DNA of 64,000 nucleotides from Fistulifera solaris (Eukaryota): positions 1,550,001-1,614,000 of the forward strand of contig AP026124.1 of NCBI GenBank assembly GCA_030295235.1, given 5' to 3'. The notes below the pieces were generated by a model. The model was not told the DNA's origin. It made no database searches and saw only the letters and a program-made list of their open reading frames with translations. Shown here piece after piece: positions 27,004 through 48,830 of this stretch. Made by a program: the position numbers and the translations under genes. The stretch's first letter is position 1; each line of letters begins with the position of its first letter.

Positions 27004-27128
27004 AATATTATCTTGCTTGTGGAGATTCGAATTCAATTGGTCGTCATGGTTGGATCATTTTGCTACACCCAAGGAGGCTACACCCGCCATTGCCCCAGCT
27101 GTACCTGGTAGCCTGTAGCTAGCTGCAA

Positions 27129-27163
27129 GGTACCGGTACCGGTACTTGTACGGTACCGGTACG
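27129..27163. repeat. Short GGTACC/TACCGG tandem tract
   Basis: ggtaccggtaccggtacttgtacggtaccggtacg. Confidence 0.8.
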
Positions 27164-28045
27164 ATATAGTTTGCCGTGTCGCATCGACCTCACATACTTT
27201 TATTCACGGTACGATACGATCATCAAAAACATTATAACGTACAGAGTAGGCGTGACGTTCCCATCTCCCATCTTGACATACGAATCAATCATCAAAAATA
27301 GAATCAGTCCCGTAAACACTATCCGCATTCATGATCTATCTCTTTTGATGAAATATTTCATCTTACGCACTCTATATGCTACAGCAATATTGCATTGTTG
27401 GCTTTGACCAACAAATTACATTCACTATACTCCAAAAAAAACCAAGAAAACTCAAAGGTGTAATAATATAAGACGGTACCCATCTTCTACGTAGGCGGGG
27501 GTGCCCAGAGCCCGGAAATTGTGGATTTCGACAACATTATTTCTCGGGTCAATCTTGTACCAGTGGCAGCGCAACTTTCAACGACATCAATGGGGTGTAT
27601 CGCTTAACAAATGACGGATGCTTGTTTGCGTTTGGAATGAAGACAAGAGAAGAAAGGCAATACTCCACAAGTCTCTAGCAATTTCTTCGTTGGCGCAATG
27701 AGCGATGTAGGGGGTACGGGTACCCGGCTATTGGTTACCCGACCGAAGGAGAGTAATCGATTATTGGAGTGTTTGAACACGAATGTGAGCTTGCCCTGCT
27801 ACTAGTACAAAACAATCGCATTCTTACCTGGAAACAACCTCTGAGATCATTCGATTCCATAAACAGTGCAAATTGAGATGCAATTGCTTTGAAAGTTTCA
27901 TAAGCTGTCGAGTACGGTAGCTGCCTTAGGTTGAGCTGACATGGAACAGGCCACTAGGTTGCGACTCAACTTGCAGCATAAATAATAGCGATGGTAACCC
28001 GGACCCGATAGCAGGATGAATAGAAGAATAATTAGTATATTATCT

Positions 28046-30370
28046 TTACTCTTCGTGTTCGCTCTGCTTCCCGTTTTTCAAAGACATTCGAAGCGAAGCG
28101 GCTAAGGCAGCCTCTTGATTCCGATCTAAGACACACGACTTCCAATGTGCCAATTGAGGCTTTCCCAAAACAGCCGCCAAAATTTCCCGCCCAAATTGTA
28201 ATGGGATTCGTACATCACTATCGGCGTTGTGCTTGTAAAGAAATCTTTTGTAAGTATGACGGCTGTCAGGTACTTCGAGGTAGAAGTACCCAAAGCTATC
28301 GTCATCATCGGTAATAACGGCTTTCAGGTTCAGATCCGATGAGAGCTCCCGCAAATTTACTCCAATCTTTTTGGCTTGTGCCATCATAGTAGCTTGTAGC
28401 TTCGCACCTAGTCCGCGTTCTACAGGAACGCATTGGACGTGCGTGTGATAGCCATGAATGGTTTCGATTGCACGTTCAAAGACAAATAAATTCATGTCAT
28501 ATGCTCTGGATGCGTGTTCTCGTAGCATTCGTTTGGTGGATTCGATCTCTTCTGCCACGGCGGGATCCGCAAATGCTCCTTTACTGCTATGGTGCACGGG
28601 TATTAGGAGCACGTGCCCGGGGTGCACAGGTCCTTTTGGCATGGCTGAATAACACAGATCATAAACACCCGTGATCAGATGCTTTTCGCAGTCTTCAGAT
28701 GCTAAGCAAAACCAGCAATCCTTACGCGAATCCGCTGGGAAATGTTGACGCTCAAAGCGAAACCCTGAAGAGTCTTCAATTATGTCATCCTCCCGTGTAT
28801 CTGCTTTTGCCCAATGCAAGTAGAGGCCGTCCAAGTCTTGTGAAGGCTTAGCTGTTGCGTCTGTAAGAAGTCGACCACCATCGGTACTACCGGTTAATGT
28901 AGCCAACGCCATGCTAGCGGCTGCATGCGAAGCGAAATCCATGAATCCGAAGAATGCTCGGTCTTGCGGTAGCCTTGCTTGAACTCGAAGAGCAGGTTCT
29001 GTTTCGGCAGTCACTTTTTCTGTGTCGTCAGGCCCCGCCAGTGCATCCTCCAAAGTTTTCTCCATCCACTTGCGCAGGATCTCGCATGTTAACTTTACAT
29101 CAGAAACAGACGGAGGCAATTTAAAGTAGACAGTTGATGAATCTTTTGCCTCACTTTCCGTCAAACGCTGCCGCTTGCTGTCCGCATTACTCGTTTTTGC
29201 GCTGCTGCTACCCCATTTCAATGTCAGTTCCACTCCTTCTACTCGTACCTTGCCTCCGCATTGCTCTAAACACCTTTCGGCTTGTTCGTGAGTCGCGAAC
29301 TCTAAAAAGCAGAAACTACTGCTATTTGCTGGTCGCCGAATCGATTGCAGATTAAACTTGGAAAAGGCATTTTGCATCAATGGATCCCCCGATTCGGCAA
29401 GCTGCAGTCTTCCCGATACATCATGATGCAAGCCATGAACAAATAATGTTGTGCAGTTTAAATCCACTTCAACTGGAGTGTCATCATTTCTGGATCGTTT
29501 CGTTGCCCAGCGATGCTGTTGCGGCTGATCTCTAGTCCGTTCTTCGTTCATAATACGTCGGATACTGGCTTCCGACAAGTTAGCACCGGCCGATTTACCG
29601 TTCAGTGGTTCGTTCATTTTCTGATACGACGTGTCCGTGAACGGGCACGGCTGAACGACTGCAGGACGTTGTTCGTTCAGTTCGGCAGTGCTCATGGAGT
29701 GAAGAGGCGCTATTCCAACGGCGTGGACATATTTCGTGTCCTTTGTAGAATTGTTTCGAATCGGCGCAATAGATAAAAATCGTCCCACGTGAAGGGTTTT
29801 TGTAGTATGCGTGATCGAAGGCAAATGATCAAATGCAGTGGATTGCTGAAAGGACTCTCCAACGGATACATGATAACGTGCTCGCGCTTGGAGTGCTACG
29901 TGCGCTACGTCAAATGACATGAGAGTGTTGGTGGCAGCATTCATACAGCTCTCGATTCCTTGAGGCCATTCGTGGCTGAATAATAAGTCACAACCGGTAT
30001 AGGATGCATGCTTGAAATGATTCATCAAGTCTGGTTGTGAGTCGACGCGTATATTCCAAGGTAGCGTCGCAACAATCAGATCCGCTTTGTTGGGGATAGA
30101 TATGCTTTTCACTCCCGTCGAGAGAACGTGCAAATTGGTGGCTAAACTCTCAATATTGTCACATTCTTGCACACCTTTCAAGCCGTGAAGATATACTGGT
30201 AAAGGAAAATTGCTTTCTTTCAAGGAATCAATAGTAGAACGACCGACAACAAATGCAACATCGAAAGGCCCCGCTTTGCTCGAATGCAGAGCGTTTATCT
30301 TTGACACAAACAGTTTTTCGCTCTCCGGATCGGAGATGGGACCAAAGAGCAGTATCTTGATTTTGCTCAT
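28046..30370 (-). CDS. CWF19L1: CWF19L1/Drn1-like protein with two inserted RRM-like domains
   Basis: KAGPFD and DLLFSHEWP N-terminal motifs; CWFCL...KGP...HVLLIPVHH and HTHVQCVP (CwfJ); QFGREILA. Confidence 0.88.
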   Translation of the reverse strand: MSKIKILLFGPISDPESEKLFVSKINALHSSKAGPFDVAFVVGRSTIDSLKESNFPLPVYLHGLKGVQECDNIESLATNLHVLSTGVKSISIPNKADLIVATLPWNIRVDSQPDLMNHFKHASYTGCDLLFSHEWPQGIESCMNAATNTLMSFDVAHVALQARARYHVSVGESFQQSTAFDHLPSITHTTKTLHVGRFLSIAPIRNNSTKDTKYVHAVGIAPLHSMSTAELNEQRPAVVQPCPFTDTSYQKMNEPLNGKSAGANLSEASIRRIMNEERTRDQPQQHRWATKRSRNDDTPVEVDLNCTTLFVHGLHHDVSGRLQLAESGDPLMQNAFSKFNLQSIRRPANSSSFCFLEFATHEQAERCLEQCGGKVRVEGVELTLKWGSSSAKTSNADSKRQRLTESEAKDSSTVYFKLPPSVSDVKLTCEILRKWMEKTLEDALAGPDDTEKVTAETEPALRVQARLPQDRAFFGFMDFASHAAASMALATLTGSTDGGRLLTDATAKPSQDLDGLYLHWAKADTREDDIIEDSSGFRFERQHFPADSRKDCWFCLASEDCEKHLITGVYDLCYSAMPKGPVHPGHVLLIPVHHSSKGAFADPAVAEEIESTKRMLREHASRAYDMNLFVFERAIETIHGYHTHVQCVPVERGLGAKLQATMMAQAKKIGVNLRELSSDLNLKAVITDDDDSFGYFYLEVPDSRHTYKRFLYKHNADSDVRIPLQFGREILAAVLGKPQLAHWKSCVLDRNQEAALAASLRMSLKNGKQSEHEE

Positions 30371-32784: not shown

Positions 32785-33022
32785 AATATAATAGACGGTT
32801 ATTTAACTGGCTTTGCTATGGACACGCGCTAGCTGGACATGGATTTGCCAGGGAGACACGGGAACGCACCTCTGCTTGGTACATTTCTCTACGGGGGTCT
32901 ACGTGAAAGTACACAATTTCCCTCACCTTCCAGCTCTCTTTTGTTGATCATTACTCTATTATTTTGTGTTGATCCAATTTGGCAAGTGACTTAATGAAGC
33001 CTAATTTAGCCAATCCAGGCGT

Positions 33023-33110
33023 GCCGAATTAGCTCAGTCGGTAGAGCGCACGACTCTTAGCCTGAACCTTAGTTATCGTGTGGTCGTGGGTTCGACCCCC
33101 ACATTCGGTG
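33023..33110 (+). tRNA. tRNA-Lys(CTT) with 15-nt intron (33060-33074)
   Basis: Acceptor stem GCCGAAT/ATTCGGT; D-arm AGCTCAGTCGGTAGAGC; anticodon stem CACGA/TCGTG; GTTCGA T-loop; TTTT terminator follows. Confidence 0.95.
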
Positions 33111-33247
33111 TTTTCTTTGCTTTTCCTTTCTTGCGCCGCGGTTTTTGCGCATGCTCATGATTGATTGTGATAGACTGTGATATTGTTATTATTTGCTATC
33201 AAAATCTTCTCTTTTTGTTTCGTTTGTGAAAAGCTTTCCGCTAAACA

Positions 33248-35868: not shown

Positions 35869-38800
35869 ATGGCTACCGCTAGTGGTGAACTGGATAATGG
35901 GTCGTTTGGACTCAGCGGCCAAGCATCCTGCTGGCAAACTAATCAACAACCCATTCATCCGTTTAATCGAAATCATCAGAAGGAATCTAGTAACTTCTCT
36001 CAGGATGAGAAATCGGTACAATCATCGCATCAAAAAGTCAATGAAAAACTATTTACCGTTAAAGGCGATTCACTTCCTTTGGAACAAGACTCAAGAGAAG
36101 AAAGGAACCAGATCGGAAACGAAAGCGAGCTTTATCAACTTAGAGCATCTGTCGATCCATATTATGCAAATAATACGTCGCATGTTTCTCCTGCTTCGTC
36201 TCCCACCAATACTGGCGTATTAAGGCAGAAATCGGTTGAACGACAGGACGATACCATCTTACATCACGAGGACACTGCTCCCCCTAGTCCCCGAAACAAT
36301 CCCTTTGAGTCTCGAGCTGCAAGAGTAGCAAGGTTAAAACATGTGCGCCCTAAGGTTACCCATCAATCAAACGATAGCGCTCCAAACGGAACAATCAATG
36401 CTGCCAAGGATGATGAGTCAGACACCATGTCACATAGTTCTTCTGACATCAAAAAGAGACTTGAAAACTCGCCGCTGCATAAAATGATGCAACAAAAACG
36501 CCCTCAGCGAGCAATCTCTGCCTCGCCCCCAAGATCACGAGAGATTTCTCATGTTGGGCAGGAAAAGCCAGAAAGGATAAGCGAAAAACTCAAAAGAATA
36601 GCCCGTTCACAGTCTCCTGCGCCATTAAGAGTTTCTGGCCCATACAAAACCGAGTTACGAGACGCTAGTTGTGAAGAACGAAAAGGTAGTGCCAACAGAA
36701 CAGCTCATCCAGTTTTTGGTTACTCAAAAATACGCTAAAATCGGGTCGCGACAACAAAATTGACGTTTATGACGCTACAACTAAGAACTCACCCCCAAGA
36801 GTTCAGTTGCAAGAACATGCAATGCACCAACAAAATGACTCGAATAATCGAATAAGTCAGTCTCCTCCACGGGTACCACACTCTTCAGCTCCGATGCATC
36901 AGGAAAGAAAAGGACTCGATATCGAAAAGAATAGCCACCAACTGCAGCGAGGTAGTAGTCCAAAGCAAGTAGCTGGGCGGTTCCAGGAACATGATTCTTC
37001 AAACTTTACGACTAGGGGGATGAACCAAAATCACGAGTATCACGTGGTTGATTTGCCAAGCAATTTGCTTGTTCGTCAAGGGAAATCAGAATATTTGGAC
37101 CCGACTTTGCTTGAGGTCGCAATGAGTGATGAAAGCACGATTTCCACGATTTCTCATAAGTATAGTGCAGAGGCCGACCGGAGAGACACTTCCGGCTACC
37201 ATGCACTCGAAAGGTCGCGACCACAGCAAAAACAGGAACTATCAAATATGAAACGACCCGAAGTGGACCCATCACGATCTGATCACGTTTGTGACTCGCA
37301 AAGAACCCGAGTCCAAGAAAGTAATCATGCATCTCGCTACCAGATGGCGAAAGGAAGTAGCGGAAGACAGAATAATGCTCACAACAATGAAAAGCCTCAA
37401 CTACTAGGGGATCACGTAATGGCCAGAGCTGACGATGACATTTTCGAGGGACTAGAGGACGAAACGCTGCTCAATGATACAATCTTTCGTTTTGCAGATG
37501 ATGATGATGGATATGTTCAGAAAGATCAAACGCTTGTCAGGCATGACAATCAAGCGACAAAGAATAGAACTCGAGCACCTTCAAGTTACGTTTCTGGAGG
37601 AGGCAGGTACGGTCGCTCGGGCATGGTCGTGGAAAAAAGTCGAGGAACTAAGTCGGTCATATCAGACATCACCTCTGATGTGAAGTTAAGAAAAAATCGC
37701 GAATATAGGAGGAAAGATTATAGCGGTGCAGAGGTTGCTACTATAGATGAAAAAACTGACGTTGATGCCGAAAGCTATGTCGACGAAACGGACATTGGTG
37801 GTAGCCGCACTGTCGACGACACCGTTGGGTATACTGTGGGAGAAGAGACTGATTACCAAGACAGCTACGAAGACGAGTCTGTCATTGGCATTAACACTCA
37901 AGAATGTACTAAGGAGCTCATCATGGACTCCGCATTTTATAAAATGGGATGTGCCGTTGTCAGTTCTTTGACCAGCGTCTTACCGGGTCAAGATGTGATC
38001 AACCAACTTTGCCAAGATCCGCGCTCTTGTTCTCAAGTGCGAACAGGAAAGAATAGCAATTGCAATTTTCTTAAAGGCGATGCCGGCTTTTCGGAAGGAA
38101 ATACCAGGGCACAAGAGAAGACACTTCAGCGAGTGGTACAGGGTCTTGCGAACTCTTCCGACTCTTCCGATACAGATCCTGCCACAAGAAGAGCTCGACA
38201 GGACGAAGAACGAAAGGAAGCGCAATCAAAGTTACTTGACTATGCGAGTCAGGCTATGGGACGTCTCTCGTCTACAAGACGCCGTCAACCACAAGTACTA
38301 GCTCCAATTTTATCACAGACGTCTCAGAGTGGGCGCGGAGGGGCAGGGACGGCATTCTCCGTTTCAGATGAAAAAACCCATTCTGACCACTCCTCAGTTC
38401 TTTCAGTTGTTCAGACTAAAGCTTTAACTGAAGTCTCTGCATCTTTGAGAAATGAGGGGGTAAAGTGTTTGAAACTTAACCGCCACAAGAAATGGCAAGT
38501 CCGATACCTCAAGGTCTCTCAAGACGGTAATACGAAATGCCCAAAAGCGCTTTTGTGGCTGAAGAATCCATCGGCACCGACCACGAAGCTTCCGGATTTG
38601 AAAACGAATGGTCAGGGTGGTTTTCTGTTTTCTAAATTAACAAACATCGAGACTATGCAAAATACGTCGCTTTTGGACAATCTGCCAAGGAATTTGCGCA
38701 AAGATTTTCCCTCGCTGCAGGTCGCAGCGCTTGACTACGACTGTGATGAAGGACCACGGCAAGTAATTATCAGTTTCAAAAATTCTACAGAAGCTGAAGC

Positions 38801-41922: not shown

Positions 41923-42580
41923 ATGAAAGCTTTTCTTCTTCTTCTCGCTACGTTTCTTCCGAGGATCGCTGCCTTTCAGGGCTTGGCGGCCACTTCATCG
42001 TCGAGATGTCCCACGGCCTTGGCGATGAGTGACGACGACTTTATGCGCTGGGCACGTGCGTCTCGAAGTGCTCAAGATGGCGATAATGTGGTCGAGCTCG
42101 TACGACCTTTAGGTCTCATCTTGAAGGAAGACGAACAACGCAACGTATACGTCGAAACACTGGCGCCGAAGGGGAATGCGGCGCGTTCTGGAAAGGTGAG
42201 GAATTACAGGGGCTTTGTCGGAGGTTTGTGACGAATTTTGTTTCGAGAATTCTTGTTTCGGCTTACAATTTATACAACAGGTAAAAGAGGGAGACATTAT
42301 TACTATGTGCAGTGCTACGTTTGGAAACGAAATGTGGAGTACTCGGGGAGTTGGCCTGAGCCGTGTGCTGGCCGCCATTCGTCTCCGGGCTGGGTCGACA
42401 GTTAGCCTTGTGTTTGAAACGCCCGGAGAATACAAAAAGAAACAAGCTCTGACCAACAAAGAGATTCAGCAAAGAGAAGAAGCTGCTCGTGCGGCACAGG
42501 CAAAGAAGGATAGTTTGCTACGAGAACTCGAAAATGATGAGAAGAAATTGAATCCGAAGAAATTCTTTGGTTTGTTTTAA
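41923..42580 (+). CDS. Plastid-targeted PDZ-domain protein, 2 exons
   Basis: Signal peptide ending IAA-F; RPLGLIL...GNAARSGK|VKEGDII...SATFGNEMW; intron 42196-42280. Confidence 0.85.
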
Positions 42581-42711
42581 ATGCCGTACATACCAAGTAT
42601 GACACACACAACAAAAACTAGCATAAAAATATCGGGATTATGACGGAATCAATTATACAGCAGTTTATCCTGATAGCTATTTATTAATGAATTGCAGGAA
42701 GTTTACGTCTG

Positions 42712-44008
42712 TCAACGTTCTTTCGAAAATGAGCTAGACGGCTTTTCGTCTGAGTCGACTTTAGATTCAAAGCGTGAATTGCATCTGCTGCATACAGCGT
42801 GATCCAACCACAAAGCGAAATCGCGCTCCGCTTCCGCTATGGCTCCCTTGTAGGCCGCCTCGACCTTTGCATGATTCGCATCGCGGCTGGATTCGAGTAA
42901 TTCGACAGTCGATTCCAGTATTTCCTGACGTTCCGCTTCCAGCATCTCACAGCGCTGGTATAAATTTCTCACAAAAGCCGGTAACTGTTCCCAAGTCATT
43001 GAATCATCGCTTTGTAGTGGGAAGAAGTTCGGATCGATTGCGTCGACATTCGCTGCGACTGGTGCGAGAGAATCGTTTTGGTCCTCCGTGGAAAGTGATT
43101 TTACCCTTTCATTGTCGGCCTTCAGTATCAATTGAACATTCTCTGTTTGTAAATCTAAAATTTGATCCATGTAGGCATCTGCTTGATCATTTAACATTTC
43201 CACCTCCCTCTCAGCGCGTATTCTTTTCTTGATCTCGATATCGAGTTGTTTTTGTAGATTAGTTTCGACTCCAGACTTTCTGTAAGATTGTTTGACATTG
43301 GCTTGCTTTAGCCTACACTCGCATTGTCTTTCTTGGGCGGCCACTGAACCTGGCGGTAAATTTATTTCGGTCAAAGACTTTCTTGTGGCGGTCAGTTTAT
43401 CCTTGAGAGCAGCACTTACTTGTCGCAACTCTCCAAGCGCAAGATTAACACTCGATTGTCGCACACCATTACTTGAAAATTGAGCATGATCGTCCTCGGC
43501 TTGGTTCCTTAATAAGCTGTTAATGGCTTTCTGAGTTGATTGGACTTCTTCTTTCAACTCATAAATCGTTTCGAGTAACTCCGTGTTTATACTGTTGATG
43601 GTAATCAGTTCTTGTTGCCGAGTAAAAGCGACAGTTTCTTCTACGGGAATTGGAGGCGGCGCATTTTCAACTTTGCATTGCTGTTTCTCCTGGTCGTATT
43701 TCTCCTGCGATTCGTGCATTTGCTTCGCTAGTTCTTCCGTGTCATCGGTGATTGCACTTGGATGATCAGCAACACTTCTTATCTCATCAGGCCGACCAGT
43801 GAATTTAGAGCGAGTTTCACACAGAACATCAATTAGACAAGTCAATTCGTCACCGACAAGACCCTTATTTTCCTCGTCCCTTAGAGTTTCGCTTTCCAGA
43901 ATGCCAAGAATATCCATTCTGACATTTTTCAGGAATTGTTGCAATGTGTCCACTGCGGAAAGTGTATCCGAAGATCCGACCTTCATTCTTTTTTGTGGTA
44001 CCACCATG
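42712..44008 (-). CDS. Coiled-coil hypothetical protein
   Basis: ~430-aa open frame rich in E/Q/K/L heptads; start uncertain. Confidence 0.6.
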
Positions 44009-44201
44009 CATAGCAGATAATGAATTATCATTGGATCACAGGACGAACAGCAATGATCATGGTGCGCTTTACTGCGGTTTTGCCGTAATTCCTTTCATTC
44101 CCGAGCAGACGCAGACACACACACAGATTACACATCGAAGCGGTGCGATTGAAAGAACAATAACGCATTGCACATCAAAAAAAATCATTCAAACGCAAAA
44201 A

Positions 44202-44474
44202 TGATTCGAGATTATCGACGAGGATGGACGACTTGACATCCATTATTTCCCCCTTGTTCCAATTAAATTTCAAACGCGTATTTCGCCTGTGAGATACGAG
44301 CAGGCCGGGCTCGCAGCTGCGTTCATCCTTATTGAAAAATATCCAGAGGCGTATGTCGTGACATTCATTCCTGGGTCGTGGGATCCCAACATTTGGAGAA
44401 AACCGTTGCTCGAGACAGAAATACTCCGAGTACTTAGAAAGCTTCTTCTAAATAATTTTAAATTAAGTTTGTGA
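44202..44474 (+). CDS. Possible small ORF or gene fragment (~90 codons)
   Basis: Open stretch FEIIDEDGRLDIHYFPLVP...LRVLRKLLLNNFKLSL*; the nearest ATG (44201) is out of frame. Confidence 0.25.
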
Positions 44475-44564
44475 ACACAAACTGATTTTGATTTTACGAT
44501 AGGAGAAGCATTGCTGAATTTTTGTTCCTCTCTTTTTTCGCTGCGTTCTTCTTCTTCTCACATC

Positions 44565-45094
44565 TCCTCTCAAAGGCGACTGAGAGAGGTTTGATGTCCT
44601 CCCCGTATTCAGTTGTTGCCAAAGCTGTGGCCTGCGATCACAGCTTGGGACCGTATGGTTGAATACAAAGTGGGAGCGAATGAAGGGTTGTGGTGCGTAT
44701 GTCCCGAGGAAGGAGGAGTCGTCTCGCGAAAGGGCAATCTCGTGTCGTCTCGACGATTCGCTTGCCTGTTTGCGAGGCTTCCTGCCTTACCGGAAAACAC
44801 GCAGTTGGAGCATTGTGCTGGGAAAAGTTCTTCACCTGAGTTGTGGGATCCATGAGGCGTGCCGAAGAACTGTGTGCGCCGATGATTGGTGAAGCAATGG
44901 TAACGGTTGAGCGGGGTTTGGGGTTCACCCCTGAGCAGCTTATGAAAGCCACATTCGCCTTTCCGCTCCCAACCGGATACATGGGCGTTTGTGATCGCTT
45001 GTTGACATCTGCTTAACGTCTTCGGAGCTCTTGCGGTGCTTATGAGTTATCCTAGAAATAGGTTAGCGGTTACGGGCACTAGCAAGGGTCCCCC
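44565..45094 (+). other. Highly structured RNA-like element (candidate endogenous RNA-virus 3' end or ncRNA)
   Basis: Five consecutive long stems with G-U pairs, GAAA tetraloop and terminal CCCCC (see findings). Confidence 0.55.
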
Positions 45095-45189
45095 ATATGT
45101 CCCAGCACAATGAAAAATGTATACCACACACCTTTCATGCTAACATTTTCTTCTATTCAAAACCAATTTAACTAAAATAATTATTAATA

Positions 45190-46829
45190 CAACTGATGGA
45201 TGCGCGCGGTGGTTAAGGACAACGGGGAAGCTCCTCCATCTGACACTTTCCAATTTCGTGTGCTCCAGCGGGTTTGTGGTTGTGCGGCCTGCTATTTGCT
45301 CTAGTTTTGTCCGTCCCTTGTTGCGTTTACTTTTAGTTCGATAGCATTCACCTCAATTTCTGTCAACGTAGGATACAGATTCTTTGTTGAAGTATTAAAA
45401 AACGAAAGGATGTACAGCGCAGGCATTCGAAATCAAATGTGAAAGCAAGGCGTGCGTTATGCCACCAAAGATGATAGTAATGTCCCCCAAATCAGTCTCA
45501 TTGATATGTACACCTGCATAGCAGTTGTTCCCGTCGATGGAGAAGGACATATGTACGACCTTTGGACTCGACTGTTGGTGCTTTCATGAATCTTTTTAGC
45601 AATACGTCATGACATTGGCACAAATAACAGATCGCAATACTTTTTTCCCTCCTTTGAGTTGCAAACCGATCTCGTGCATGCTACAAACATTTCCGAATCT
45701 CTGCATTCGAACCCCAGCAAGGAATGGCTAGTTGCTCTTCCTCTCCACCTCCATTCCGTCATCGGGGTGACTAATAATGTTGCACGTCGTCCAGGAAACA
45801 GCAGTTCCTATCCAATCCACTTGCTTCACTACTAGTCCTTTAGATTTCAATATCCGCCGTGCTCTTTCTAGGAGGATAGCCAAAAACTCGTGTGACATCC
45901 GGAAAAGAATATCATCGCCGTCAAATGCTGAGACGATAAACAGGGAATCAACGTTGGCCAACAAAGGTGAAATCCAGCGGCACCTAGACAGTGTAGTGGC
46001 GTCATGTTCGAGCTGGTGTCCGTTATTGTGAGTTGGTCGTGCGAACCTTTGTTTCATCGAGCGAAGTTAAACCATCAGTCTCTTGCTGTTGCGTGCGCTG
46101 AAGGCGATGATTTGCGTGCGAGTCCTTTGACTGTTTTCGTGCGGCGGCGATGAGACAAATATCTTGTGTGTCATGTAATTCGTCAGTTTCTGACCTCAAG
46201 TGAAAGTGTACAGCTGTAGCTAATACAGAATAGATAGTATGCTTCGATTGTCGCTGATTTTGTTGGTGTTTCGCCGATAGCAATATCTCGTATAAAGTGT
46301 TTATTAGCTCAGCGCTTCTGGAGCGGTGTAGACACTTTTCGCAATCGACCTATCTGCCTTTTGGCTTCTTTAGCATGCAGGAAACAACTGCGTCTGGTGG
46401 ATATTCCTCGTTCCAAAACAGCTTGATAGTCTTTCGAAAACTTACAAATAGCATCTTCTTTCGAGGTATTGCTATACTCCCATAACTGAACCGCCTTATC
46501 CTGTCAAACGTTTCGATCCAAGTCGGGTTATAGGAGTTCTCGACCTGAGCCAGCGGCGGCTACGCAAAAGCTATAAGAAGAGAACCCCGTCAGGAATTAA
46601 GTAATTGAATGAGCCGCAACGCGATCGTGACATGTACATGGTGTCACAAAGTGTTTTGCTGCCCTGCGATCTGGTCGGATCTTTCGTTTGAGCATTTCAA
46701 AATATGCGATATGTATCCTGACGAGCCATAATCATAACGGGTGAATTGGGGTAGCATTTCTTTGGTAAGTAATGGCCTACTAGGAGTAATTTGGCGTTTA
46801 AACAATTCATCGAAAACCCATTTTGTCAT
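45190..46829 (-). pseudogene. Possible degenerate coding relic
   Basis: Chain of short protein-like open stretches in changing frames (e.g. IVSAFDGDDILF) with many stops. Confidence 0.3.
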
Positions 46830-46861
46830 TCTTGTTTAGTTGCTGGTTGCACGCTCTGCCA

Positions 46862-46900
46862 GGTACCGGTACCGGTACAGTACCGGTACCAGTGGTACGT
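46862..46900. repeat. Short GGTACC/TACCGG tandem tract
   Basis: ggtaccggtaccggtacagtaccggtaccagtggtacg. Confidence 0.8.
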
Positions 46901-47079
46901 AGTATGAATGTGATGGAGCGACTATGGAGCCCAGTGTAAGCACCGTCACGACCCACGACTGCATGTCAGTCATTAATGCATGCAAAAACCCCAAAATGCA
47001 AAATGCAGAACGAACGAAGCTGCCATAAAATCATTTTGTAACTGTTGTTACTGTGATTTATTCGTATTCGTACTCATTG

Positions 47080-48830
47080 ATGGAAAGCAGGCACAGAAAC
47101 AGCGAGAAGCGTCGTCCTCTGGCCGAAAATGAGGCGCTAGAACAGGCTTCGTTCCTGACGCCGGTCATGTTATCGATTCTGGTGACCGAAACTGGTAAGT
47201 CTCGATACTTGTATCGTTCAAAAAGCCGTTCCACTGTTCTTACTTTATATTTTCCACTAGGAGAACGCTTCGCATACTTTGGCTTTCGTGCGGTGCTGGT
47301 TTTGTATTTCAACCAGGCAGTCGAGTATGACGAAAGTCAATCCGTGGCGAACTATGCTTTTGTTACGTCATTGGCCTATTTCTCCCCGATTGCGGGAGCC
47401 GTTATGGCCGATGGACGCTGGGGGCGATACAATACGATTCTCTACTTCGGGATTGTATACATATTTGGTCTCGCCATTTTGACGGCTGCTTCCGTGTTAC
47501 ACGATCTTTCCTTGAAACGACTTGTCTCATTCGTGGGTTTGTTCTTTGTGTGCCTGGGTACTGGAGGGATCAAGCCATGCGTTTCTTCTTTTGGAGCCGA
47601 TCAAGTAGGGCATGCTCCCAATATTCAAGATGATGATGATAATAAGGATAGTGTGGGGCAAATCGAATTGGCCGCACGGGCAGCGCAAGTGCAAGGCTTC
47701 TTTGCCTACTTTTACTTTTGCATCAATCTCGGAGCATTGACCAGCATATCTACCATTCCTTTATTACGAGCTCATTATGGTTTTCGAGCCGCCTTTTTCA
47801 CGCCTCTGGTGTTCATGATACTCGCAATGGCACTGTTTGTGTCCAAACGCCAAGATTATGTTCATCACCTTCCTGAAAAGACGGGTCTTCGCTACTCACG
47901 ACTTGCCGCTACACGCTTTGGCTCTTTCGGAGAAATATCGCAAACTCGTATCCTTCTCTAACGTCCCGTTTACCATTCTTGACGCCAGGATCCTTGTCTG
48001 AGTATAGCGTGTTGCGAAATTCTCTAGACGACGAGACCAAGACGACTAGGGAAGACGAAGTGATTGTTGATGACGATGGCTCCTCGGACCTACAGCTTGA
48101 AGATGCGGCTCAAGCCTTACATGTCTTACCGATCATGATGATGCTCCCTATCTTTTGGGCTCTCTATGATCAACAAAGCTCTGTGTGGACATTGCAGGCT
48201 CAACGGATGAAGCTGCATGGTCTACAACCAGAACAGCTCAACGTCATTAATCCAATGCAGATCATGGTGTTCATTCCATTCTTTGACAAAATTGTGTATC
48301 CAGCGCTACGACAACGTCATGTGAATATTGAACCGCTGCGGCGTATGTCATGGGGAATGTTGCTGGCGGCGGCCTCTTTCGTGATCAGCGGATTGGTGGA
48401 AAATGCGATACAGAAAGCAACTCCGAATTCGGTCGATGTGTTCTGGCAACTACCCCAAATTACAGTATTGGCGATCGCTGAAATATTTCTTAGTGTAACA
48501 GGCTTGGAGTTTGCATACGCGACGTCATCAGAACGCTTGAAAACATTCCTCATGGGGGTCTTTCTCCTTACAACTGCAGTGGGCGACATGTTCAGTGGTG
48601 TACTTTATTCGACCATTTTCGCCCATCTGAACCAAGCCGTTGTTTTGTATGTTTGCGCTGCCTTGATGCTAGGAAATCTTGCCTTATATCAGAAGGTGGT
48701 CGTGTGGTACAATCGTTGTGATGTTCACACTTTGCGAGAGTCATCGGACGATATCGAGATCCAAGCGTTCAAGAGATCAGCCATCCGCGAAACTACATCT
48801 TCAAATAGCCACGACGTTCAAGTTACATAA
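47080..48830 (+). CDS. POT/PTR proton-dependent oligopeptide transporter
   Basis: ETGERFAYFG (ExxER) after removing intron 47195-47260; GTGGIKPCVSSFGADQ; FYFCINLG; frameshift ~47880. Confidence 0.92.

Follow-up and report, generated by a model that had tools for sequence, protein, structure and literature searches.

A dispersed, non-coding nuclear repeat with a conserved core and hairpins partly kept by evolution

One copy of a multi-copy host repeat

The element described here belongs to a dispersed, multi-copy, non-coding repeat family of the host nuclear genome, of which it is a single copy, and positions ~44590-45118 form its conserved core. Coordinates refer to the window, the whole 64-kb stretch of DNA that was analysed. 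A preliminary description, made from the letters at 44565-45094, had noted a series of G-U-rich hairpins followed by a C-run, and had proposed either an integrated fragment of an RNA replicon or an undescribed structured RNA.

Repetition was assessed with four public runs aligned to window positions 42000-47500. Run X1 is DNA-like and appears to derive from the same strain: it has long contigs with 0 other letters and an even depth of 15-22, and it is unspliced across an intron at 42196-42280. Runs X2 and X3 contain spliced cDNA (joint 42198/42284), and both match the unique parts of the window with 0 other letters. The fourth run, X7, is a recorded freshwater metatranscriptome, described in its library text as rRNA-depleted. 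These four were chosen from nine listed runs; the other five (X4, X5, X6, X8 and X9) have small word shares of 0.08-0.18, which carry no weight as evidence.

Unique X1 contigs, those with 0 other letters, end at 44273 and restart at 45099. The 5.5 kb of 42000-47500 recruited 157 X1 contigs (69 at 99% identity or more, 51 at 95-99% and 37 at 90-95%), and within the repeat different contigs are stacked on the same positions (10 at 44328, 7 at 44355 and 12 at 44371). Summed X1 contig depth, which is not equivalent to copy number, is 285-939 inside the repeat versus 16-22 in the flanks. Judged from contig ends (31-letter words), the repeat reaches from 44244 or earlier to at least 45128, a span of about 884 bp whose edges are known to approximately 30 nt. 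Neither a second copy within the 64-kb window nor tandem structure at this copy was found. Six peptide patterns searched against metagenome_contigs for relatives gave 152 raw matches, 0 of which were confirmed, and a degenerate hairpin pattern gave none. Diatom organelle DNA is AT-rich; an organelle-derived copy (NUMT/NUPT), a candidate prompted by the high summed depth, was put aside given 7-12 variant contigs per position and the G+C content of the core.

The core is distinguished from the remainder of the repeat by its contexts and its uniformity. Contigs of X2 and X3 join 44590 and 44592, respectively, to two different and unrelated upstream sequences (255 and 30 letters), and thus the core from ~44590 onward is also found in other contexts. 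Contigs lie wholly or mostly inside the core, including one from X2 (44800-45118, with 1 other letter and 1 gap) and one from X3 (44592-44727), while X7 contigs at 90-97% identity span 44573-45115; X7 also has one 156-nt contig identical to the 3' end of the neighbouring gene. A single X1 contig carries the alternative letter at 44679, 44732 and 44738, whereas 7-12 variant contigs represent the upstream part, so that copies vary less in the core than in its flank. Depth in X2 is 26-40 in bins of the upstream part and 400-1265 in the core, although contig depth cannot rank parts. Several flank bins are empty, and X7 cover within the repeat is confined to 44573-45115, but uncovered parts prove nothing. 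The region is not a single insertion, and the core is flanked on either side by sequence that is also repeated.

The G+C content is 53.6% in the core, 41.5% in the upstream part and ~46% in the window, and the element contains two copies of a 17-nt motif, CCTGRGTYGTGGGATCC, spaced by 465 nt (44370-44386 and 44835-44851). The features of the repeat are as follows.

44245-44589 (+): upstream, more heterogeneous part of the repeat, represented by variant contigs; left edge approximate; indels of -1, -1, +2 and +2 at 44339-44392
44440-44509 (+): AT-rich upstream hairpin (inverted repeat I1), outside the interval of the preliminary description; folds starting at 44431/44441 have z -3.9/-3.8 on + and -1.9/-1.7 on -
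44590-45118 (+): conserved core, ~529 nt, non-coding, with a three-domain fold; loose contig ends at 44590 (X2) and 44592 (X3); contigs from X2 and X7
44605-44666 (+): hairpin 1 (inverted repeat I8), outer stem 44605-44616/44655-44666, inner stem 44623-44630/44638-44645; z -1.92 (+), -2.87 (-)
44715-44782 (+): hairpin 2, the strongest, stem 44721-44730/44769-44778; z -3.80 (0/200)
44811-44823 (+): 5' arm of the 13-nt helix, perfect complement of the 3' arm
44826-44871 (+): hairpin 3, stem 44826-44833/44864-44871; in the minimum free energy (MFE) fold, z -0.61 alone
44905-44974 (+): hairpin 4, stem 44905-44914/44963-44974, with a GGGG/CCCC tip that holds the extra G of other copies; z -1.64
44930-44931 (+): site of a G that contig comparison shows to be absent here and present in most other copies; its absence creates a 58-codon frame
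45024-45092 (+): terminal hairpin, 28 pairs (7 G-U), GAAA loop, cap CCTA-GAAA-TAGG; z -2.68 (+), -0.12 (-)
45090-45094 (+): C-run CCCCC, internal to the unit; repeat and contigs continue to 45115-45128
45100-45112 (+): 3' arm of the 13-nt helix, perfect complement of the 5' arm

The repeat is non-coding

No frame runs through the region in the standard code. The protein-like frame of the preliminary description does exist in this copy, where it comprises 58 codons and stops at a TAA (45014-45016), but it is broken in most other copies by an extra G after 44930, which shifts it into an immediate stop (frame +1). This G is present throughout X2 (407.9/407.9) and X7 (8.81/8.81), and in about half of X1 (428.9/807.6). 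More generally, the indels that distinguish copies of the repeat, namely those at 44339-44392 and the +1 at 44930, are not multiples of three. Nine listed substitutions (44284-44387) in an 89-codon frame of the upstream part fall 3/4/2 on codon positions 1/2/3, in contrast to the neighbouring gene, in which nine of the first ten listed substitutions fall on third positions; 37 further differences lie beyond the listing.

Protein searches agree with this assignment. No Pfam family, RdRp families included, passed for eight standard-code and five code-4 translations, and word-index protein searches gave no match for a 145-aa minus-strand ORF, a 102-aa plus-strand ORF or the 58-aa frame. Among 1.84 billion representatives, phmmer matched the 89-aa upstream ORF only to P0001, and weakly so (E 3.4e-4). 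P0001 is itself a tandem-repeat translation, 171 aa long and derived from one ENA contig, in which FVPGQWDP..WR is repeated four times. The motif FxPGxWDP..WR is common to P0001 and the translation of 44362-44400, the stretch that also holds the first CCTGRGTYGTGGGATCC copy.

When TGA is read as tryptophan (code 4), the frame reported in the preliminary description is open for 184 codons, and all three frames of the + strand and two of the - strand are open. This openness of five of the six frames arises because TAA and TAG are rare in the region: the 529 nt contain 2 TAA, 4 TAG and 14 TGA. A code-4 or mitochondrial reading was rejected, as - frames are open too, a code-4 frame of at least this length is present in 43% of window tiles of the same size, and Pfam returned nothing.

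Hairpins and folding statistics

Every stem named in the preliminary description was recovered in its place, and all are present in the minimum-energy folds. The degree to which they exceed chance differs, however, between the region as a whole and its individual hairpins. For the whole of 44565-45094 the signal is modest, with z -2.26 on the + strand (1 of 100 shuffles as good) and z -1.58 on the - strand (8 of 100), while the core at 44590-45118 folds with z -2.76 (0 of 100). Single hairpins were compared with 200 shuffles each. The fold of 44715-44785 (-33.7 kcal/mol) was reached by 0 of 200 shuffles on the + strand (z -3.80) and by 29 of 200 on the - strand (z -1.05), and that of 45016-45096 by 4 and 81 of 200 (z -2.68 and -0.12), respectively. 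Hairpin 1, in contrast, folds as well or better on the - strand (44600-44670: z -1.92 and 7/200 on +, z -2.87 and 2/200 on -). Taken alone, neither hairpin 3 (44820-44875, + z -0.61, 51/200) nor hairpin 4 (44900-44978, + z -1.64, 17/200) is better than chance.

Of the five hairpins, the two at 44715-44785 and 45016-45096 thus clearly exceed chance and do so on one strand only; a third is symmetric, and the remaining two are at chance level by themselves. The proposal that folding is specific to the + strand accordingly stands for these two and fails for hairpin 1, and folding in excess of shuffles is clear for the same two hairpins but modest for the region and absent for hairpins 3 and 4. It is the G-U asymmetry, and this only, that points to + as the RNA strand, since the contigs show neither RNA ends, strand nor level.

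A background for the entire window was obtained from 12,786 composition-regressed folds of 80 nt, taken at a step of 10 on both strands. Twenty-three distinct loci have z of -3.5 or lower, and 3 of them, at 44431-41, 44711-21 and 45021, lie on the + strand of the 884-bp repeat, where 0.32 are expected (Poisson P about 0.004). Hairpin 2 is the second most extreme of all 12,786 window-strands. The first of the three loci is the AT-rich upstream hairpin, whose 5' arm has different letters at 44444 and 44446 in other copies (loose end 44425).

Pair-preserving changes in the terminal hairpin

The terminal hairpin offers evidence that pairing, rather than sequence, is retained. At 45035 one X7 contig departs from the alignment, and its next 30 letters were compared by eye with 45037-45066 at a 1-nt offset. 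All six substitutions that this variant carries in 45037-45066, the upper half of the hairpin, keep the pairing. They include two double compensations, in which the A-U pair 45049/45064 becomes U-A and the A-U pair 45054/45059 becomes C-G, and single changes at 45041 and 45066 that each convert a G-U pair to a Watson-Crick pair. Among 200,000 random sets of six changes, all pairs were kept in 0.4%, and in 0.04% this was accompanied by two or more double changes. The covariation is good but thin evidence, coming from a single contig aligned by eye, that at least one hairpin is under selection for pairing on the + strand. We conclude that the hairpins are real and partly kept by evolution.

The C-run is not an end, and there is no sign of a viral fossil

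The preliminary description had the element ending in CCCCC, a feature that contributed to its comparison with RNA replicons. The repeated unit instead goes on to at least 45128. Positions 44811-44823 pair perfectly over 13 nt with 45100-45112 (inverted repeat I3), a length reached by 0 of 150 dinucleotide shuffles, and in the MFE and centroid structures of 44590-45118 alike it is this helix that closes the 3' domain. With one arm of the helix located beyond it, the CCCCC run is not an end.

The element is very unlikely to be the endogenised 3' terminus of a narna-, mito- or ourmia-like RNA replicon, even though its terminal hairpin precedes a C-run, one strand is dense in hairpins and a code-4 frame is open for 184 codons. 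The narnavirus signature is 5'-GGGGC...GCCCC-OH with a terminal stem (PMC10293807). The element resembles such a 3' end in its long hairpin preceding a run of C and in its pervasive hairpins on one strand, but differs from the signature in that its C-run lies 24-34 nt inside the unit and that there is no G-run on the 5' side near 44590. Unlike a narnavirus, moreover, the element has no RdRp frame and occurs in many DNA copies in the host genome. Further points against a viral origin are that code-4 open frames of this length are common on both strands of the window, that no Pfam family was found in either code, and that the extra G interrupts the frame in most copies. Scans of viral_contigs and a phage blastn search gave no match. 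The proposed integrated cDNA is therefore replaced by a dispersed host repeat with no RdRp-related frame, no viral match and a C-run that is not terminal, and we find no sign of an RNA-virus fossil: the hairpin-plus-C-run appearance and the open frame are accidents of one repeat copy.

Comparison with transposon classes and RNA families

With the tempting call of a viral fossil removed, what remains is a dispersed non-coding repeat with constraint at the RNA level (compensations in the 28-pair hairpin and a 13-bp helix) that matches no transposon class or RNA family tested. A target-site duplication (TSD) was not detected beyond chance, since the flanks share five 6-mers where 4.2 are expected and one 7-mer where 1.1 are expected. 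Ends of an LTR, solo LTR or TRIM element were absent, with no TG..CA pair bearing a duplication of at least 4 bp and a longest direct repeat of 17 nt. There are no terminal inverted repeats (TIRs) of the kind that a MITE or DNA transposon would have, and the only inverted repeat that reaches significance (13 nt, 44811/45100) lies inside the unit and lacks a flanking duplication. A Pol III head was not found either: ARAGORN reported 0 genes even at an 80% threshold, no A or B box was seen using the familiar consensus motifs, and Rfam at E of 10 or lower gave no tRNA, 5S or 7SL match. The only tail is AAAAA at 45113-45117, with no further A-rich or simple-repeat tail, and the window contains no partner reverse-transcriptase gene or other transposon protein. 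The preliminary description had allowed for a known retroelement, but we could assign the repeat to no known element class, and we found no described diatom element of such a kind in the open-access literature that was searched.

At the Rfam gathering score there is no match in the element, and the only one in the window is a tRNA at 33023-33110. The best scores in 44000-45600 are 11.8-21.2 bits against thresholds of 38-60, with no convincing match below threshold. The suggestion of an undescribed structured RNA survives in part: the lack of an Rfam match, the strand-specific hairpins, the presence of the core in RNA-containing runs and the six of six pair-preserving changes all favour it, and this support is partial.

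The closest parallels in organisation are found among elements with a stringent 3' tail. The eel UnaL2/UnaSINE1 pair exemplifies a non-LTR retrotransposon with such a tail and a SINE mobilised by it. For the R2 non-LTR element, the 3' RNA is reported to be needed for protein binding and for the start of target-primed reverse transcription (PMC3414825). Like these tails (R2 3' UTR, UnaL2/UnaSINE1), the element is multi-copy and transcribed, its copies are joined to different upstream sequences, and it has a non-coding 3' stem-loop in which pairing rather than sequence is conserved. It is unlike them in having no TSD, no 3' microsatellite or poly(A) beyond five A residues, no Pol III (tRNA, 5S or 7SL) head, no visible partner LINE and no sequence match.

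Among diatoms, the part of the Phaeodactylum Phatr3 account drawn on here lists 873 unclassified repeats, 13 putative SINEs (first reported there), 235 MITEs and 27 TRIM/LARD elements (PMC5859163). These resemble the element, by description and not by sequence, in that both are short, non-coding and dispersed in a gene-dense genome, and they differ in that a covarying hairpin is not reported for them in the same part of that account (PMC5859163). Multicopy gene families of the snRNA type likewise have a uniform transcribed core, more variable flanks and compensatory variants. The element is nevertheless long for such a gene at ~0.5 kb, it has no Rfam match and no recognised promoter or 3' box, and many of its copies are diverged.

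Possible origins of the repeat

Our tentative explanation, which has a real but not yet even prospect of being correct, is a mobile element of non-autonomous, retroposon-like type, with a structured 3' domain that the copying machinery would recognise; we infer both that it moves through RNA and what its 3' domain does. The element would be copied through an RNA intermediate, and the 3' domain, consisting of the 13-bp closing helix and the terminal hairpin, would be the part that the copying machinery must recognise. We propose that such recognition explains the compensatory changes, which preserve the stem even as its sequence diverges. Consistent with this proposal are the dispersal of the repeat, the copies with other upstream contexts, the 90-100% spectrum of identity, a 3' hairpin that keeps its shape and not its letters, and the precedent of the R2 3' RNA (PMC3414825). 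Set against it are ends that bear no hallmark of a transposon class (no TSD, TIR, LTR ends or Pol III head), the five-A tail as the only tail, and a window in which no partner reverse-transcriptase gene is found. Because both flanks of the core are repeated, the data fit duplicated genes with their flanks equally well.

Those duplicated genes might form a family for an undescribed structured ncRNA of ~0.5 kb, the core being the mature RNA under purifying selection and the flanks duplicated promoter and terminator regions. We regard this as rather doubtful, although it would account for a core more uniform than its flank, for the pair-preserving changes in the terminal hairpin, for the strand-specific hairpins and occurrence of the core in RNA-containing runs, and for the lack of transposon ends. 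It would also suit the finding that the 529-nt core has no run of four or more T residues, compared with five such runs upstream and the next at 45146, which is not significant, having a chance of about 1 in 6 (P about 0.17). The many diverged copies (37 of 157 X1 contigs at 90-95% identity) are less easily reconciled with a gene family, as is the failure to find an Rfam family at gathering score or to identify a promoter. In addition, contigs of the RNA-containing runs extend upstream of the core into sequences that are unrelated (255 and 30 letters), so that at those copies the core is no clean transcription unit. An orphon of an rDNA spacer or external transcribed spacer, or some other segmentally or tandemly duplicated block, is improbable. 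Its hairpins would then be of the kind typical of pre-rRNA spacers. In favour of such a block, the element is multi-copy and hairpin-rich, the G+C content of its core is above that of the upstream part and the window, it is present in rRNA-depleted RNA (X7), and the only protein-database match, P0001, is a tandem-repeat translation. The 64-kb window, however, holds no rRNA, the copy lies between single-copy protein genes with no tandem structure, and a homogenised array would be hard to square with 7-12 variant contigs per position.

A broader possibility, somewhat unlikely in our estimation, is that the core represents the gene, or retroposed copies of the gene, for an undescribed structured RNA of ~0.5 kb whose three-domain fold is under selection. 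If true, this RNA would be a new cellular RNP scaffold or else stand at the origin of a new SINE-like kind without a Pol III head, in a lineage in which SINEs are barely known. Non-autonomous retroposons and long structured RNAs of diatoms are poorly catalogued, and the family could thus define a new type of mobile element or RNA gene; if it is merely an unclassified repeat, the finding is an ordinary one.

Genomic setting

The window is gene-dense eukaryotic nuclear DNA, probably of a diatom, and its long ORFs encode myosin, Sec7, POT transporter, SMC, eIF4E, protein kinase and RabGAP domains, among others of this sort. The nearest Atlas cluster of its myosin is mostly diatom, which we treat only as a lead. 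The element sits in a 1.6-kb spacer between a minus-strand coiled-coil gene (ORF 42712-44094) and a small minus-strand ORF at 45728-46066. A short repeat, CAGACA x3.7, occupies 44106-44127, just upstream of the start region of the coiled-coil gene. More distantly, a tRNA-Ala(AGC) at 33022-33111 (+) measures 88-90 nt (ARAGORN; Rfam 58.8 bits), which exceeds the standard tRNA length, and it is probably intron-bearing.

On the other side of the coiled-coil gene, a small gene at 42025-42580 (+) has one GT-AG intron (42196-42280), and two public runs contain it in spliced form. In the RNA-like runs X2 and X3 the gene is seen only in a version that differs by 6.8%, with 33 other letters in 486 nt, mostly at third codon positions, while X1 contains both versions, each covered to a similar depth. 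The expressed version would accordingly be a diverged allele or a paralogue.

Strong folds are also present elsewhere in the window. Comparable 80-nt outliers lie at 35881-35970 (-), 28411-28490 (+) and 27091-27200 (both strands), with z of -3.8 to -4.6. A GGTACC-like palindromic run, GGTACCGGTACCGGTACAGTACCGGTACC, at 46862-46897 folds very strongly into hairpins on either strand (z about -4), and there X1 summed depth is raised (117.6 at 46878) with loose ends at 46862; this short palindromic microsatellite has further copies elsewhere. Immediately beyond it, the POT/PTR2 transporter is split over overlapping + frames (47029-47961 and 47877-48830) that cover profile positions 1-132 and 190-379, a division that probably reflects an intron or a frame change.
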